This document shows, one piece after another, positions 5,753 to 55,367 of a DNA stretch of 64,000 bases. Origin of the DNA: a virus. Taxonomy: Duplodnaviria > Caudoviricetes. The position numbers and the translations under genes were made by a program. Numbering within the stretch: the stretch's first letter is position 1; every line of letters starts with the position of its first letter. The notes under the pieces were generated by a model. That model saw nothing but the letters and a program-made list of their open reading frames with translations, was not told where the DNA came from and made no database searches. The stretch is taken from positions 12,654-76,653 of IMG/VR virus record IMGVR_UViG_3300036805_000175; one strand, written 5' to 3'.

Positions 5753-7138
5753 ATGCACGGCTCCGACTGCGGCTGCGCCGACCGCGCCAACGGGCACAAC
5801 CCGGACAGCATCGACTACCGGGCGTCCGTGGACAACTCGGCGTGGGACGGCCCGGCGGCCATGTCGGGCTGCTCGAACTCCGGCACCCCGGCGTCGTGCT
5901 TCGGGTCCATCTGCGCCGGCAAGAAGGCTGGCGACACCGCCACCCAGGACGCGTGGGCGCTGCCGCACCACAAGCACCCCGGCGACCCGCCGAACGCCGC
6001 CGGGGTGCAGAACAGCCTGTCCCGGCTGCCGCAGACCCAGGGGCTGACCAACGCCGCCGCGGCCAAGGCGCACCTGCAGGCGCACATGAAGGCCATCAAC
6101 CCGGACTACGCCGGCGACGCCGCGGAACCGCCGCAGGCCGGGCCGCCCGCGCGTGCTGACGCCCGGGCGCGGGCACGGGCGGGCGTCCGGGAGTCGCGGC
6201 GGGACATCATGCCGAAGGTGGCCGCGGCCCGGGCCGCGTGGGCCAACGACGGCCAGCACCACGCCCGCCGGGAGGCACCCAACCCGGGCGGGCGCACCCA
6301 GGGGTTCGGCTCCAAACTGCGCGCCGTCGCGGCGATGAAGGACGGCGGCCAGTTCTACGAGCTCGAGGGCACCGCGTCCGTGGTGGACCAGCCGTACGAG
6401 ATGTATGACATGTTCGGCCCCTACGACGAGGTGATCACCAAGGGCAGCTTCGACGCCTCGCTGGCCACCGACGGCCTGGACGTGGCGTTCCTGCTCAACC
6501 ACAAGGGCGTCACGATGGCCCGCACCACCAACGGCACCCTGTCGCTGTGGGCCAGCCCCGATCTCGCCGTCCGGGCCTACGTCAACGCCGGCCGGGCCGA
6601 CGTCCGGGACATGGTGTCGGCCATCGCCGATGAGCTGATCACCGAGATGAGCTTCGCGTTCTGGCTGCGCGGCGGCGAGTGGTCCGACGACTACATGACG
6701 TTCACCATCGACGAGGCCGACATCAACCGGGGCGACGTGTCCGCGGTCAACTACGGCGCCAACCCGTACACGTCCATCGCCGCCCGCACCGCCGAGCTGC
6801 TCGACGCGGTGGACCGGATGCCCGCCGGGCTGGCCCGGGAGATGACCGAGCGGCTCGCCGCCCGGCCGGACCTCACCGACCCGCGGATCGGCTGGGAACC
6901 CCCACAGGCCCGCGGGGACACGCCGGAGCAGCTGCGCGACGCCCTGCACAGGCACGTCATCGGCTACCGGGTGGGCGGCAAGGTGCACGCCCCCACCGAC
7001 GTGGACCTGGTGACCGACTGGGCCGACGCCGGCGTGCCGGACGACGTGTTCCCGGTGCCCGGAGGCGAGGCGAAGACCGGGCTGAGCGTGCAGATGCTCG
7101 CGCTGCAGCTCGAGTCCGACGACGACCTCGACCACTAG
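5753..7138 (+). CDS. HK97-family prohead protease with long N-terminal extension
   Basis: LEGTASVVDQPY, YDEVITKGSF, FLLNHKG..MART, EMSFAF, DVSAVNYGANPYT. Confidence 0.9.
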   Translation: MHGSDCGCADRANGHNPDSIDYRASVDNSAWDGPAAMSGCSNSGTPASCFGSICAGKKAGDTATQDAWALPHHKHPGDPPNAAGVQNSLSRLPQTQGLTNAAAAKAHLQAHMKAINPDYAGDAAEPPQAGPPARADARARARAGVRESRRDIMPKVAAARAAWANDGQHHARREAPNPGGRTQGFGSKLRAVAAMKDGGQFYELEGTASVVDQPYEMYDMFGPYDEVITKGSFDASLATDGLDVAFLLNHKGVTMARTTNGTLSLWASPDLAVRAYVNAGRADVRDMVSAIADELITEMSFAFWLRGGEWSDDYMTFTIDEADINRGDVSAVNYGANPYTSIAARTAELLDAVDRMPAGLAREMTERLAARPDLTDPRIGWEPPQARGDTPEQLRDALHRHVIGYRVGGKVHAPTDVDLVTDWADAGVPDDVFPVPGGEAKTGLSVQMLALQLESDDDLDH

Positions 7139-7216
7139 CACCCCCCCCCCCGCAAGCCCACCCGCGCCCAGCGGGTGAACCGCCGCGCGATCCGCGTGGC
7201 GTGCAGTGCCGCCGCG

Positions 7217-7295
7217 CCGCCAGTCAGAGCGGCTGCGGCTCGTACCCGCCAGTCAGAGCGGGCAAGTCACCCGCCCGGGCCGCCAGTCAGAGCGG
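7217..7295 (+). repeat. Three 16-bp direct repeats CCGCCAGTCAGAGCGG, each a stem-loop
   Basis: Copies at 7217-7232, 7246-7261 and 7280-7295; CCGC/GCGG stem with CAGTCAGA loop. Confidence 0.9.
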
Positions 7296-7351
7296 CCCCG
7301 GTGCCAGACGGCACGAACCTCACCGTTCACAACGCCCAGGAAGGCACCGCA

Positions 7352-8869
7352 GTGAATCCCACCATCGACAGCCTGCTCGCGCAGGCCGAGGTCGAGAAGG
7401 AAGCCGCCGAGCACCGCCGTCAGCGGGCCCGCGCCGAGATCACCTACATCATCAACGCCGCCAACTCCGAGGGCCGCTCCCAGCTGAGCCCCGAAGAGGA
7501 GCAGAAGGCGTCCGACGCCCGCAAAGCCCGCGACCAGGCCCGCAAGGACATCGCCGGCATCGAGGGCAAGATCGCCAACCTGCGTGATCTGCAGGCCGAG
7601 GAGAGCGAGTACGCCTCGGCGCAGCAGCGCACCCAGGCCGCCGGGCAGCCCATCGCCACCGAGCGTGGCGGCGACCCGGGCCGGGCCGGCGGCGGCGACG
7701 CGCCGCACTCCACCGGCGGCCAGGGCGGCCAGCGGGCGCCCGCCTACGACCAGGTGCACCGGGTCGGCGCCGAGGCGCGCACCTACACCAGGGGCTCGGA
7801 CCCGAACGGGCGGCAGTTCCTGATGGACGTGTGCCGGGCGCACATCCTGTCCGACCCGGCCGCGCAGGCCCGGCTGTCCCGGCACATGGCCGAGGAGCGG
7901 GTCGAGCGGACCGCCGAGCAGATGCAGCGCGCGGCCGGCGACAGCACCACCGGCAACTGGGCCGGGCTGACCGTGCCGCAGTACCTGACCGACATGTACG
8001 CGCCGGTCGCCCGGGCGCTGCGCCCGTTCGCCGACATCTGCAACAAGCACCCGCTGCCCGCCAACGGCATGGCGCTGGACATCTCCCGGATCACCACCGG
8101 CACCGCGGTGACCCAGCAGGTGAACGAGCTCGACAACGCCTTCCAGCAGAGCGCGGACGACACGCTGCTGACCGTCCCCGTGCTCACCGCGGCCGGGCAG
8201 CAGAAGGTGTCCCGGCAGGCCATCGACCGGGGCACCGGCATCGAGGACGTGCTGATGCAGGACCTGTTCGCCGCGTACGCCACGTCGCTGGACAACCAGC
8301 TCATCACCACCGCGAGCACGGGCCTGTCGGCGGTGGCGAACACCGTCACGGCCAACACCACCACCAACCAGGTCCAGTCGGCCTACTCCAAGATCCTCGG
8401 TGCCATGTCCGGGGTGGAGGCGGCCCTGCTCAACATGGGCTACCCGACGCACGCGGTCATGCACTCCCGCCGGTGGTACTGGTTCGCCTCCCAGCAGGTG
8501 AGCACGTTCCCGTTCGTGCAGCAGCCGGGGATGCCGTTCAACGCGACCGGCGCCGCCGAGCCCGCCAGCCACTACAACAGCGGCGTCCGGGGGCACCTGC
8601 CGATCGGGCTCGAGGTCGTGGTGGACAACAACCTCGCCACCAACCTCGGCGCCGGCACCAACCAGGACGAGATCTACGTCGTCCCGGACCGGGAATGCCA
8701 TTTGTGGGAGGATCCCTCGGCCCCTCTTTATATTCGTGCCGATCAGCCGGCGGCCCCGAGCCTCGGAGTTCTTTTGGTCACGTACGGTTACTTTGCCTTT
8801 ACTTTTGCACGCTATTCCGGTGCAATCCAGAAAGTTTCTGGCACGGCATTGTCTGTACCTGTGTTTTAA
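7352..8869 (+). CDS. Major capsid protein (HK97 fold, coiled-coil delta domain)
   Basis: GTG at 7352 after AGGAAGG; coiled-coil N-terminus; AGLTVPQYLTD, QQKVSRQAIDRG, VMHSRRW, VVVDNN. Confidence 0.9.
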   Translation: MNPTIDSLLAQAEVEKEAAEHRRQRARAEITYIINAANSEGRSQLSPEEEQKASDARKARDQARKDIAGIEGKIANLRDLQAEESEYASAQQRTQAAGQPIATERGGDPGRAGGGDAPHSTGGQGGQRAPAYDQVHRVGAEARTYTRGSDPNGRQFLMDVCRAHILSDPAAQARLSRHMAEERVERTAEQMQRAAGDSTTGNWAGLTVPQYLTDMYAPVARALRPFADICNKHPLPANGMALDISRITTGTAVTQQVNELDNAFQQSADDTLLTVPVLTAAGQQKVSRQAIDRGTGIEDVLMQDLFAAYATSLDNQLITTASTGLSAVANTVTANTTTNQVQSAYSKILGAMSGVEAALLNMGYPTHAVMHSRRWYWFASQQVSTFPFVQQPGMPFNATGAAEPASHYNSGVRGHLPIGLEVVVDNNLATNLGAGTNQDEIYVVPDRECHLWEDPSAPLYIRADQPAAPSLGVLLVTYGYFAFTFARYSGAIQKVSGTALSVPVF

Positions 8870-8931
8870 TCCTTAACCACTCCGTCATTCTAGAGTGGCT
8901 ATTCTTCGCGCAATTCTTAGTCGCTTTCCCG

Positions 8932-8992
8932 TGGTACAATTAGCGGAGCCAGCGAACGGCTCCCGGCCGGGATGTGCCCCGGCCCGGGAGCC
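8932..8992 (+). promoter_or_regulatory. Extended -10 promoter (TGgTACAAT) and leader hairpin of the endonuclease gene
   Basis: TACAAT at 8935-8940 preceded by TG; GGCTCCCGG (8958-66) pairs with CCGGGAGCC (8984-92). Confidence 0.55.
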
Positions 8993-9025
8993 TGCCGACC
9001 ACCCGATCGAGACTCGGAGGCCGAC

Positions 9026-9706
9026 GTGCCCAGGGTACTGCAGCCCGCTACCTGTCCCTCGTGCGATGGCGAGTTTCTGCCAGCAGACCGCCTCGCGAAA
9101 GTGTCTGCCCAGGTCTACTGCTCACTCCAGTGCCGGGCGCGGTACAAGATCAGGCGGCGTAGCAGGTGCGCCCGCTGTAAGACCCGCAAGATCGAACGCG
9201 GTTCCTACTGCCGTCCCTGCCAGCGGGCCTACGATCAGGAGAATAAAGCCCGGTTCCGGCCCACCTGTGCAGCCTGCGGTGCCCTGCGGGAAAGCAATGC
9301 TAGCCATCCGTCCTACTGCCGGGCCTGCATAAGCGTAAAACGGGCCTCGGCAAAGCGGTGGCGGAAAACATGCAGGACCTGCGGGAAGTTGCGTGAGGAC
9401 AGTTCGCATCCGTCCTATTGCCGTGCCTGCCAGTGGGCGGCATGGCTCCGGCAGAAATACAAGATCACGCTGGAAGAGTTCGCAGCTAAGGTGGCCGAGC
9501 AGGATGGCCGGTGTCCCATCGATGGCGAGATGCTGGACGTGAGCCTGGACGCGATGACTGGCCGCCGCAAGACCCGCGTGGATCACGACCACAGGACTGG
9601 CCGGTTCCGGGGCATCACGTGCCACCGCCACAACATCGGCATGGGCTACTTCGCCGACGACCCGGCGCTGCTGCGGGCGGCGGCCAGCTACCTGGAGACG
9701 GCGTGA
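9026..9706 (+). CDS. Endonuclease VII-family (His-Me) homing-type endonuclease with N-terminal CxxC repeats
   Basis: GGAGG RBS at 9016-20; many CxxC motifs; KYKIT..EQDGRCPI..VDHDHRTGRFRGITCHRHNIGMGYFADD. Confidence 0.85.
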   Translation: MPRVLQPATCPSCDGEFLPADRLAKVSAQVYCSLQCRARYKIRRRSRCARCKTRKIERGSYCRPCQRAYDQENKARFRPTCAACGALRESNASHPSYCRACISVKRASAKRWRKTCRTCGKLREDSSHPSYCRACQWAAWLRQKYKITLEEFAAKVAEQDGRCPIDGEMLDVSLDAMTGRRKTRVDHDHRTGRFRGITCHRHNIGMGYFADDPALLRAAASYLETA

Positions 9707-9843
9707 TAGCTGAGATCGTGGGTGGCCAGTTCGACGGCTCCCAATACATGCTGCCCTCTGGTGTGTATCCGGGCTCCACGATCGTCACGATTGAGCGCGA
9801 CGGCCAGATCTGTGAACGTGGAGCCCGCTACCTGCCTCGCTGA
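9703..9843 (+). CDS. Small hypothetical protein (46 aa)
   Basis: GTGA overlap with the endonuclease stop. Confidence 0.4.
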   Translation: MIAEIVGGQFDGSQYMLPSGVYPGSTIVTIERDGQICERGARYLPR

Positions 9844-9880
9844 TTACGCCATCCATCCTCCCGGACAGGAGATCCTGCAA

Positions 9881-10222
9881 GTGACCGCAACGCCGCTCTT
9901 GAGCTATGAGCTGATCACCGAGGACGTGCGCATACCCGCATCCGGGAACACCTGGACCCCCAGTACTGCCGGTATCATCGTGGACCTGGACATTCCGGCC
10001 GACGGTTTCGTCGCCGGCTCCGGCGTCATCGTCCTGCAGGTGCTCAACACCTCCGGCGATATGGTTGATGTCACCGATTATGAGACGGTCGCGGCGGCGG
10101 GTGACGTACACACGCACAGCGGCCCGCACCCCACCGACTCGGCCAAATGGCGATTCCAGATTTACGCTGACGAGCAGATTCCTCTCGTGCACCTCTGGAT
10201 GACCGTTCTCACCGGTCCCTAG
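9881..10222 (+). CDS. Hypothetical beta-rich protein
   Basis: GTG after AGGAG; lower GC3 than neighbours. Confidence 0.55.
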   Translation: MTATPLLSYELITEDVRIPASGNTWTPSTAGIIVDLDIPADGFVAGSGVIVLQVLNTSGDMVDVTDYETVAAAGDVHTHSGPHPTDSAKWRFQIYADEQIPLVHLWMTVLTGP

Positions 10223-10224
10223 CC

Positions 10225-10776
10225 GTGAGGCTGGTCCGCTCCTGGCCGGCCGACGTGCCGGGCCACCATCCCCGCGTCGTCGACGGCCTGGAGCGGGTCA
10301 TCACGGACGGCCCGGACTACCGGCCGCTGGCGGGGATCGATGACGACCTGATCCACCTGGACTGGGACATGGCCGTCTGCCCGGAGGACCTGGCCCACTT
10401 CGCCGCGCACGCCCGCGAGGACCCCGGCGCGGTGCTCGTGGGCCCGTACAGGATGTACGCGGGCAGCCTGCAGGGTGCCCGGCCGCGCGGGCTGGCCGCC
10501 GATGAGTGGGCGATGCGCCGGTACTGCGCCGGGCCGGCGGGCGCGGAGACGGCGATGCGGCACATCACCCCCGGCGACGGGGCGTGCCACCTGTTCGGGT
10601 TCGGCATGGTGTACTTCCCGGCCGGGCTGCTCGCAAAATTCTGTGCGGCGTTCCCGGGGGAGCCGCTGACCGACATCGGCTGGTCCGGCTGGCACAACCG
10701 CAACGTGAGCTATGAGGCGCGGCTGTGCTGGCACGTCCACCCGGTGCACCTGAACTTCCCCCCGCCGTCGCTGTGA
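10225..10776 (+). CDS. Minimal GT-A-like glycosyltransferase (putative)
   Basis: DDDLIHLDWD (DxD-like), FGFGMVYF, DIGW, CWHV pattern. Confidence 0.5.
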   Translation: MRLVRSWPADVPGHHPRVVDGLERVITDGPDYRPLAGIDDDLIHLDWDMAVCPEDLAHFAAHAREDPGAVLVGPYRMYAGSLQGARPRGLAADEWAMRRYCAGPAGAETAMRHITPGDGACHLFGFGMVYFPAGLLAKFCAAFPGEPLTDIGWSGWHNRNVSYEARLCWHVHPVHLNFPPPSL

Positions 10777-10840
10777 CCCCTTTGAGAGTGCAGGCTCCGG
10801 TAGGGTCTGCCGTAATGGCCATCACCGATGGGAGTGAGCC

Positions 10841-11059
10841 ATGAGCACCGACCGGGCCGAGCATCTCGCGGACGAGCTGGCCGACGCGGAGACCGACGGT
10901 CGCAGCACGGACGCGCAGCGGATCGCCAAGCACGCCGAGGCCGAGCGGGAAGCCGCCGGCCGTGACCGCGGCGAGGCCGCCGCCGAGCGCGAGCAGCAGA
11001 CCCGCAGCCGCCACACGCCGCCGAAGGGCCGCCGCCGCGCCGCCCCCGGCAGCACGTGA
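10841..11059 (+). CDS. Small charged protein
   Basis: GGGAGTGAG RBS; GC3-rich. Confidence 0.7.
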   Translation: MSTDRAEHLADELADAETDGRSTDAQRIAKHAEAEREAAGRDRGEAAAEREQQTRSRHTPPKGRRRAAPGST

Positions 11060-12411: not shown

Positions 12412-12876
12412 ATGAGCGACCACATCTACGAGGGCGCCTGGACCTACACCTCCGGTGCCGCCGCGCACGCCATCGGTGAGATCATCCCGGCGTCGCTGGC
12501 CACCGGGAAGCGGCCCCCGGAGATCCGCGAGATCGGGGTCTTCAACCAGTCCGGCGTGGGTGCCCAGATTGGCCTCGGCCGCCCGGCAGCGATCGGTGTG
12601 ACGCCGGGCACGCAGACCACCGTGCAGGCCGGGAACAGCATCGACACTATCGCTGGCAACACGGTCATCGCCGCCTCGTGGGGCACCGCACCCACAACCC
12701 CGACGACGTTCATGCGCCGGGCCGACCTGCAGGCCGTGGCGGGCGCGGGCGTGATCTGGACGTGGCTGCCGGGTGAGTTCGTGCTGTGGTCGGGCGCGTC
12801 CATCAGCACGCTCGTCCTCTGGCAGCTATCCACGCTGGCGGTAACTTTCGACCTCTACTGCAAGGTAGCGGAGTGA
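12412..12876 (+). CDS. Putative virion structural protein
   Basis: Beta-rich; lies in the structural operon. Confidence 0.6.
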   Translation: MSDHIYEGAWTYTSGAAAHAIGEIIPASLATGKRPPEIREIGVFNQSGVGAQIGLGRPAAIGVTPGTQTTVQAGNSIDTIAGNTVIAASWGTAPTTPTTFMRRADLQAVAGAGVIWTWLPGEFVLWSGASISTLVLWQLSTLAVTFDLYCKVAE

Positions 12877-33448: not shown

Positions 33449-33766
33449 GTGTCCGGGATACCCGTCGAGCTCGTCATCACCGGCGGCGTGGTGCAGCTCC
33501 AGAAATGCGGCCTGTACGCCCACGCTGTACCGATTCTCAACAGCCACCACGTTTGCCCGGAGTCCTGGTGGCTGGCCGCCGGGAAGCCTGTTGCCTCCCC
33601 GTTGTTCAGCCTCTGCCCGGACTGCCACGAAGCGGTGCATGTGGCGATCGACGCCCAGATCCGGGGCCTGGGCACCTCGCTGCTGCCGCCGCGGTGCGTG
33701 AAGCTCGCCGCTGAGGCGTTCCCCATCGCCGAAGCGAACGGGCTCACCCCGGCACTGACCCTGTAG
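33449..33766 (+). CDS. Small HNH-like protein
   Basis: SHHVCP..LCPDCHEAVH. Confidence 0.6.
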   Translation: MSGIPVELVITGGVVQLQKCGLYAHAVPILNSHHVCPESWWLAAGKPVASPLFSLCPDCHEAVHVAIDAQIRGLGTSLLPPRCVKLAAEAFPIAEANGLTPALTL

Positions 33767-54888: not shown

Positions 54889-55367
54889 CACGCCACCGCC
54901 CCAGCGGGAGCCTCGAACGCGTACCCGCCGTCTGCCGTCAGCCAGGCCGTGATGCCCGAGCCGCCCGCGCTGTGCAGCATGACCGGGACGAGTGCGGGAC
55001 TCTCCCACGAGTGCAGCCAGTACCCGGCGCCGTTCATGTCCCTGTCGCGGTCCTCGGCCTTGCGGTGGCAGCCGGGCGAGGTGGCCGAGCCGCACAGCGT
55101 TACCAGGTTCTCCGGGCTGTTGCCGCCGCCCTGGCCACGGGCCACGCGGTGCTGTATAGACCACCAGGTGCCCGGGATGCCCACCGGCTTGCCGCAGGCG
55201 CAGCACTGGAATTGGTCGCGCTCGAGCACGAGCGCCCGGGTGGCGCGGTCCGGCCCGGTGTCCCGCTGCGGCTTGCGCGCGGTCTGTGTCCTCGCTGGCG
55301 CGGTCGTGGCCTTGAGTGGTGTCCTGGCCTTGAGGGGAGTTCGCCGGGCCAGCGGTGTGCGCCTCAC
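54888..55367 (-). CDS. HNH endonuclease
   Basis: VLERDQFQCCACG..QHRVARGQGG..NLVTLCG..GCH. Confidence 0.8.
   Translation of the reverse strand: MRRTPLARRTPLKARTPLKATTAPARTQTARKPQRDTGPDRATRALVLERDQFQCCACGKPVGIPGTWWSIQHRVARGQGGGNSPENLVTLCGSATSPGCHRKAEDRDRDMNGAGYWLHSWESPALVPVMLHSAGGSGITAWLTADGGYAFEAPAGAVA

Follow-up and report, generated by a model that had tools for sequence, protein, structure and literature searches.

Behind the major capsid gene of a high-GC actinobacterial phage lies what probably represents a free-standing homing endonuclease cassette of ~1.35 kb (8870-10222), inserted between the capsid gene and its usual follower and presumably spread by intronless homing with co-conversion. 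The phage is represented by a metagenome-derived viral record of 76.6 kb with a G+C content of 70% (IMG/VR record IMGVR_UViG_3300036805_000175). The window, that is the whole stretch of DNA analysed here, comprises 64,000 nucleotides of this record (positions 12,654 to 76,653), and coordinates given without a locus name refer to it. The observations on which this reading builds are the anatomy of the locus, the enzyme's family and fold, the sporadic way in which it is distributed among relatives, the link between nuclease genes and recoded capsid tails, and a left border common to these tails.

In the mechanism that we propose, the enzyme would cut endonuclease-free capsid alleles during a mixed infection, in or near the codons for E-C-H-L-W-E-D-P, ~170 nt before the capsid stop. 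The break would be repaired from the endonuclease-bearing genome, and the interval from the cut to the endonuclease gene would be copied along. The last 58 capsid codons (8693-8869) would be this obligatory co-converted interval, and hence cassette-linked rather than resident DNA that specifies the same protein end with silent differences. Owing to these differences, the enzyme would act poorly on the allele of its own carrier. Cleavage, the cut site, the immunity of the recoded allele and present-day activity are predictions from sequence patterns, which are described below.

The capsid gene changes its codon usage abruptly at position 8693. Upstream of this point 482 of 506 codons end in G or C, as do all but 2 of the 366 codons from 7595 to 8692 (G+C content at third codon positions, GC3, ~0.99). 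Within the last 58 sense codons 29 end in A or T (binomial P ~1e-22 against a 5% background), and the maximum-likelihood GC3 change point lies exactly 58 codons before the capsid stop. An earlier note on this DNA, written from its letters without database searches, had described near-exclusive use of G/C-ending codons up to 8692 followed by 29 A/T-ending codons, and its count proved exact. The G+C content at first and second codon positions moved little across 8693 (from 0.69 to 0.59 and from 0.52 to 0.50), and the protein aligned with its relatives through the last residue in an unbroken frame, with an amino acid identity in the tail of 0.64-0.75 that equalled or exceeded that of the body. 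The shift therefore lies at silent sites, and the capsid C-terminus is normal despite the recoding, as the earlier note had stated. No displaced original capsid 3' end or exon was found 3' of the cassette. The low GC3 continues downstream (tail 0.50, endonuclease 0.79, and 0.72 and 0.79 for two small open reading frames (ORFs) of 46 and 113 amino acids, flanked by values of 0.99 and 0.96), so that the island runs on to 10222 and its right border is not 9706, where the earlier note had placed it.

The locus was compared with 160 related capsid loci from actinobacterial prophages and IMG/VR contigs (45-66% identical; individual loci carry L numbers). This revealed the empty site: in many endonuclease-free relatives, the homologue of a 183-amino-acid gene that follows the island in the window starts 13-29 nt after the capsid stop (13-26 nt in L129, L130, L138, L155, L132 and L134). 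The nuclease gene in the window is thus a stand-alone gene between conserved genes, with an uninterrupted capsid ORF and no intron.

At the level of sequence, the clearest evidence for homing comes from a natural pair in metagenome 3300026304. Along 3.8 kb, L109, without a nuclease gene, and L113, with one, had an identity of 95-97%, and per 100 nt they showed 0-14 mismatches, mostly 0-7. L113 carried a 683-nt insert with an EndoVII-type (endonuclease VII) gene where L109 had 29 nt. Within the capsid gene only the final 223 nt were divergent, with 51 mostly silent mismatches (~23%), and there the codons of L109 ended in G/C and those of L113 in A/T. Straight after the nuclease gene, identity was back to 97%.

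Silent divergence was concentrated in the tail in four pairs that include a carrier. The silent difference rose from 0.12 in the body to 0.54 in the tail for L113 and L109 (p = 1e-10), from 0.28 to 0.70 for L142 and L120 (p = 2.7e-7), from 0.19 to 0.52 for L135 and L132 (p = 1.2e-6), and from 0.31 to 0.65 for the window and L083 (p = 7e-5). None of ten endonuclease-free control pairs showed such an excess of tail over body. Amino acid identity between the window and L083 was 0.68 in the body and 0.71 in the tail. The expectation that the protein would be kept while silent divergence starts at ~8693 was thereby borne out for the window and L083, and likewise for L109 and L113. Such an excess confined to the capsid tail is that of a donor-type tract; for the window itself it rests on L083, its nearest relative at 69% identity.

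Nuclease genes occupied the gap behind the capsid gene in 15 loci of the capsid tree, the window included. Most were EndoVII-type, and ~90% of the relatives had none. On the tree of the capsid body the 15 carriers required 15 changes, 13 of them forced by supported branches, which is the same number as with shuffled labels; such a sporadic scatter is what a mobile element produces. In a set of 120 non-redundant alleles whose body has a high GC3, the GC3 of the tail dropped by more than 0.15 in 5 of 13 endonuclease-bearing versus 2 of 107 endonuclease-free alleles (Fisher p = 1.3e-4, Mann-Whitney p = 3.7e-6; these statistics ignore relatedness). The remaining 105 of the 107 kept a G/C-ending tail, in line with the earlier expectation that relatives free of the endonuclease would not have the A/T-rich end.

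The left border of the recoded tails recurred at a similar place. In the window and in L142, L113, L135, L132, L127 and L120 the GC3 change point lay 52-64 codons upstream of the stop. In type A cassettes, our name for those with the window's leader, codons ending in A/T were near zero from codon -100 to -65 and began at codon -58, the E of E-C-H-L-W-E-D-P. A/T wobble bases were present at codons -58, -52, -45, -22 and -18 in 6-8 of 7-8 cassettes, which may reflect either common ancestry of the cassette-borne tails or selection at particular positions. The 24-mer homologous to 8693-8716 had a mean major-allele frequency of 0.962 and ranked first of all 24-nt segments when the final 1200 nt of 98 distinct endonuclease-free (naive) alleles were compared; the window differs from the naive consensus at 5 of the 24 bases. 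As a candidate recognition or cleavage site, this 24-mer fits the target zone that had been predicted in the GC-rich original near 8690-8870. Taken together, the scatter on the tree, the association with the tail, the common left border and the L109/L113 pair argue for the proposal made in the earlier note, a mobile homing cassette linked to a recoded capsid 3' end.

The enzyme belongs to the EndoVII (DHHRN) family. Residues 140-224 of 226 matched Pfam PF02945 (Endonuclease_7) at 4.4e-14, with 52.6 bits against a cut-off of 23.6, the PHROG endonuclease VII family matched at 9e-24, and this was the only Endonuclease_7 gene in the whole 76.6-kb record. D186, H187, H189, R195 and N203 were invariant across 13 homologues; the roles of the DHHRN residues have been described for D40, H41, H43, R54 and N62 of T4 EndoVII (PMC6083498). 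The structure model had a mean predicted local distance difference test (pLDDT) score of 78.6, with at least 85 over most of the nuclease domain and one 10-residue block at 69. Its best structural matches were Hpy99I (probability 1.0) and T4 endonuclease VII, with root-mean-square deviations of 2.6-3.1 Å over 92-93 columns and E-values of only 1.6e-3 to 3e-2, so that the model predicts a beta-beta-alpha-Me fold like that of these two enzymes. The nuclease domain is C-terminal, which is the domain order of the endonuclease clade and not of the resolvase clade (PMC6083498). It is preceded by zinc-ribbon modules, of which homologues carry 2 to 7; in this region Pfam DZR_2 matched weakly, as did zinc-finger arrays in the structure comparison. 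The nearest homologues were 37-43% identical by BLAST and at most ~60% identical over aligned columns.

Cassettes of this lineage also share a leader. After the spacer the window has, in this order, TGgTACAAT, a hairpin, TGCCGAC, GGAGG and GTG 9026, and the 91-nt leader (8938-9028) folds at -43.1 kcal/mol (z = -2.46). Hairpins were compared by per-sequence folds, since automatic alignment mis-registers them, and an equivalent hairpin with a differing stem sequence, followed by TGCCGAC, was present in L163, L164, L165, L169, L142 and L113. TAGAAT or TACAAT stood in the same relative place just 5' of the hairpin in L163, L165, L169, L142 and L135, and GGAG(G)CCGAC with the start codon was kept in five cassettes. 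The earlier note had listed an AT-rich spacer, an extended -10 promoter, a hairpin leader and a gene combining zinc fingers with EndoVII. The spacer, the hairpin and the gene were found as described, and so was the sequence of the -10-like element, but a generic sigma-70 scan called no full promoter there, and the sole support for this element is its conserved position in related cassettes. The longest ORF starts at ATG 8972, which falls in the hairpin loop. Comparison of sequences places the endonuclease start at GTG 9026 behind GGAGG, and not at ATG 8972 as first read, because the N-termini of homologues (consensus M-P-R-V-x-x-Q-P-A-T-C-P) align there and an independent gene call also gives 226 amino acids.

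The same plan was found in the homologues P0002, P0003 and P0004 (38-43% identity) and in the homologue at L169, the one extra locus recovered in a search with a narrower endonuclease alignment. All four lie directly behind a capsid gene of the same family with a low-GC3 end, and their leaders consist of a TAGAAT-type -10 element, a G+C-rich hairpin with a variable stem, TGCCGAC, and GGAG(G)CCGAC with the start codon. L142 and L113 also carry a leader of the window's type. The homologue P0001 is located elsewhere, near a single-stranded DNA-binding protein (SSB) gene. IMG/VR yielded no close relative of the endonuclease, and in cultured phages nothing matched the island, the best endonuclease relatives being only 29-36% identical. 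Two loci, L135 and L016, carry a Pfam HNH domain in the gap instead of EndoVII. In L135 (2593-3249, HNH) and L120 (2807-3340, EndoVII) the N-terminal 85 amino acids, a zinc-binding module, are 58% identical, and this pair thereby points to the swapping of nuclease domains on a common DNA-binding module among competing homing genes.

Several observations weigh against the homing reading or restrict it. A near-identical endonuclease-free sibling of the window phage was not found, and the key comparison rests on a related cassette, the L109/L113 pair. The phylogenetically independent-pairs test was underpowered, with 3-4 pairs in agreement and none in disagreement (p = 0.125). Recoding is also no automatic companion of a nuclease gene. 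Another EndoVII lineage at this site, with L103, L101, L088, L089, L085 and L120, shows no long recoded tract, and in L103, L101, L088, L089 and L085 recoding covers the last 10-12 codons or is absent. The lineage has a short leader of ~35-40 nt in L103, L101, L088, L089, L154 and L072, and the recoding there, of the last 10-12 codons only, suggests that it may use a different cut site. Conversely, three endonuclease-free loci have recoded tails, namely L132 (5270-5472), L134 and L157. Of these, L132 is the sister of the HNH-bearing L135, a clean case of gene presence and absence. In these three the nuclease could have been lost, or resistant alleles could have spread alone.

Composition and age count on the same side. 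In every case examined the GC3 of the tail was below that of the nuclease gene (0.50 versus 0.79 in the window), a difference left unexplained by a simple model of donor composition. Nucleotide identity between the window's tail and the tail of any other locus reaches at most 67%, and the enzyme is at most ~60% identical to any homologue. A recent transfer is not visible, and the copy in the window could be an old or inactive one. The enzyme also has an altered structural zinc site. The family pattern is CX2-4C before and CX2C after the DHDH motif, and the window has C163-x2-D166 and C199-x2-H202, with Asp as the second and His as the fourth ligand position. The CxxH form is common among relatives, and the change from Cys to Asp is matched only in kind by P0003, which has Gly there.

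An extended form of the homing reading is conceivable, although we hold it only tentatively. In this form the capsid 3' end would be a contested site, fought over by at least three nuclease designs (leader-bearing zinc-ribbon EndoVII, short-leader EndoVII and HNH swaps), and the tail would be an inherited immunity module whose fixed A/T wobbles block cleavage, a natural "cleave and rescue" drive. Naive alleles use G/C at silent sites, and escape would therefore push the tail towards A/T.

Ordinary mosaic recombination, homologous or illegitimate, from a lower-GC relative, with the nuclease as a passive passenger and neither targeted cleavage nor immunity, would account for the fact that all of 8693-10222 forms one compositional island. 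Low-GC3 members of the capsid family do exist (L016, L019, L121 and L149; GC3 ~0.6), and neither a recent transfer nor a common nucleotide ancestry of the tail was seen. We nevertheless regard this explanation as unlikely. Independent loci have their left border at the same codons, which is also where the most conserved 24-mer lies, and recoded tails are tied to nuclease genes. The GC3 of the tail mismatches that of the linked genes (0.72-0.79), and the window's tail is least similar to the low-GC member L121 (0.49). In L109 and L113, moreover, the divergent tract lies only between the conserved motif and the nuclease gene. A chimeric contig, joined by the assembler within the capsid gene, would also produce an abrupt change of composition at 8693, and the record is a metagenome-derived contig. 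This can be largely dismissed, as the frame and the capsid alignment run unbroken to a normal C-terminus, an independent contig of another sequencing run (Logan assembly, SRR11835779) has the same gene order, and the same architecture occurs in at least 8 unrelated contigs.

It is also improbable, if somewhat less so than an assembly artefact, that the nuclease performs a function for the phage, for example as a Holliday-junction resolvase or as an HNH-type factor associated with packaging, and that the A/T-rich end is regulatory, as an embedded promoter or through slowed translation or reduced RNA structure. The EndoVII family does include resolvases (PMC6083498), promoters of T4 endonucleases can sit in the 3' end of the upstream gene (PMC2988022), and the -10-like element and the hairpin are conserved. 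However, most relatives lack the gene, its carriers are scattered over the tree, and the C-terminal position of the nuclease domain, behind zinc ribbons, is that of the endonuclease clade and not of the resolvase clade. Some loci have a Pfam HNH domain behind the same N-terminal module at the same site. A recoding of 174 nt far exceeds the needs of a promoter, and 105 of 107 endonuclease-free capsid genes do without an A/T-rich end. In HK97-like phages, HNH proteins associated with packaging are conserved among relatives and lie beside terminase or portal genes; this candidate was set aside, as the gene is absent from ~90% of the relatives and sits between the capsid gene and the next head gene. 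A group I intron-encoded endonuclease was likewise rejected, with no match to an intron model and no displaced capsid exon downstream.

Table 1. Features of the capsid 3' end, the putative homing cassette and its flanks in the window.
Feature	Position	Strand	Basis or remark
Major capsid gene, resident part	7352..8692	+	ORF open from 7175 to 8869
Recoded capsid 3' end, 58 codons and stop; putative co-converted, cleavage-resistant tract	8693..8869	+	GC3 0.50, change point, silent divergence
Candidate recognition/cleavage site, E-C-H-L-W-E-D-P codons	8693..8716	+	Matches most conserved 24-mer of endonuclease-free alleles
A/T-rich spacer after capsid stop	8870..8931	+	GC ~0.50
Extended -10-like element TGgTACAAT, putative cassette promoter	8932..8940	+	Sequence; conserved position
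Leader hairpin, ~14 bp, G+C-rich	8958..8992	+	Fold of leader
Ribosome-binding site GGAGG, 5 nt before GTG 9026	9016..9020	+	Conserved
Free-standing EndoVII-type (DHHRN) endonuclease gene, 226 amino acids	9026..9706	+	Pfam, PHROG, homologue alignment
Four CxxC...CxxC zinc-ribbon modules, presumed DNA-recognition array	9053..9430	+	Repeats in translation and alignment
Nuclease domain, beta-beta-alpha-Me, EndoVII type	9443..9697	+	Catalytic D186 at 9581-9583, conserved residues, model
46-amino-acid ORF, overlaps endonuclease stop (GTGA), in low-GC3 island	9703..9843	+	GC3 0.72
113-amino-acid ORF, last gene of low-GC3 island	9881..10222	+	GC3 0.79
Resident flanking gene, 183 amino acids	10225..10776	+	GC3 0.96; directly after capsid in endonuclease-free relatives

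The two small ORFs that complete the island showed no similarity to the ORFs behind other cassettes and matched no Pfam or PHROG family. No homologue of the 46-amino-acid product was found, and a single distant homologue (40% identity) was found for that of 113 amino acids. The Logan contig, 1586 nt long, contains a 61-amino-acid capsid end, a 226-amino-acid endonuclease and both small ORFs, and it spans ~8684-10269, almost exactly the low-GC3 island. Its ends may be branch points between variants in that sample, or may reflect poor coverage of the high-GC flanks. The resident gene that follows has homologues in 28 related loci and no Pfam or PHROG match; in L142 it is duplicated in tandem (6230-6751 and 6766-7326). 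At other loci an ORF of ~124 amino acids without a known family lies right after the nuclease gene (L163, 1012-1386; L113, 4509-4880). The same ORF stands after another gene in L157 (5747-6349), and it does not occur in the window. Elsewhere in the same record, two HNH-domain matches (PF01844) were recorded at ~33500-33640 (+; 18.4 bits, below the cut-off) and ~55050-55205 (-; 24 bits, above it), and these could be other homing genes.

Upstream, the head genes lie on the + strand, with a protease gene (5753-7138, Peptidase_S78) followed by the gene for the major capsid protein, which matched a major head protein family (PHROG 2263) at 4e-46. The likely translation start of the capsid gene is GTG 7352, since a ribosome-binding site (AGGAAGG) precedes it, the alignments of relatives begin there, and GC3 nears 1 soon after. 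The 5' part of the long ORF (7175-7351) precedes the start used by relatives and has a GC3 of only 0.6-0.8; it is probably a non-coding leader rather than protein. Within the protease gene, a weak match to the Guanidine-III riboswitch at 7022-7085 (20 bits, where the gathering score is 36; E = 0.48) is most likely due to chance. Neither a group I intron nor any other Rfam RNA family scored above chance in 7000-11000. The capsid family is distantly related (~30% identity) to the capsid of Cluster J mycobacteriophages.

The process itself is known. The cut that free-standing endonucleases of T4 make in endonuclease-free genomes lies hundreds of bp away from the endonuclease gene itself, and in seg/mob homing the repair must reach homology beyond the gene, so that the interval is co-converted (PMC2988022). 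The window shares with T4 SegF, SegG and MobE a stand-alone nuclease gene between conserved genes, an arrangement for which intronless homing with localized marker exclusion is described in T4 (PMC2988022). Further likenesses to the T4 endonucleases are a cut, inferred here, in a neighbouring essential gene away from the nuclease gene, with co-conversion of the interval, and a late-type promoter of its own near the 3' end of the upstream gene (putative here) with RNA structure in the leader. T4 segD, moreover, is located between the capsid gene 23 and gene 24 (PMC2988022). The T4 enzymes, however, are of the GIY-YIG or classical HNH type, whereas the window has an EndoVII/DHHRN enzyme with a zinc-ribbon array, and in a high-GC actinobacterial phage, unlike in T4, the co-converted tract stands out as a GC3 collapse.

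Other systems share single traits. F-CphI of the DHHRN family (PMC6083498) carries the EndoVII motif at its C-terminus, with D, H, H, R and N conserved, and is encoded by a free-standing gene beside its presumed target. It works with a group I intron in psbA, whereas the window has no intron and immunity would come from silent changes; its N-terminal region is unrelated, and the zinc site is CxxC/CxxC there and C..D/C..H here. In Cluster J mycobacteriophages the capsid gene contains a mobile intron with an endonuclease, free-standing HNH genes are numerous, and the insertion of one HNH gene gave the lysin A gene next to it a new 3' end (PMC3706429). In the window, by contrast, the capsid gene is uninterrupted, the element lies after the stop codon, and the 3' end is replaced synonymously and not altered. 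Homing genes near essential phage genes (PMC10448857) likewise lie beside a capsid gene, carry repeated zinc-binding modules and have nuclease domains swapped on a common module, but their nucleases are of the T5orf172 and IPA-HNH families; silent-site recoding of the flank is not discussed in the main text of that paper, where the word "synonymous" is absent. The synthetic Cleave-and-Rescue drive (PMC6442612) is similar by analogy only, as a cutter aimed at an essential gene and linked to a recoded, uncuttable version. The element in the window is natural, its "rescue" is the in-place 3' end and not an extra copy, and its spread would occur by repair-mediated copying.

Homing endonucleases with an EndoVII motif, homing genes beside capsid genes and mobile elements in Cluster J capsid genes have thus all been described before. 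What appears particular here is the combination of a zinc-ribbon/EndoVII design with a conserved promoter-hairpin leader, a defined, predicted homing site at the capsid 3' end of actinophages, and a putative co-conversion tract visible as a GC3 collapse. For annotation, the locus calls for caution: the recoded end could pass for a chimera, and ATG 8972 is not the start codon. For the EndoVII/DHHRN enzymes with modular zinc-ribbon arrays, an almost unstudied class, it provides a predicted enzyme-target pair with a candidate 24-bp site in an essential capsid gene, for which putative natural resistant alleles are already in hand. If the capsid 3' end is indeed contested among nucleases, an arms race would be readable directly as GC3 collapse. 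In high-GC phages, a local GC3 collapse in an essential gene beside a nuclease gene would be a signature of homing tracts that requires composition only, and by which homing sites and co-conversion tracts could be charted in actinophage genomes and in prophages.

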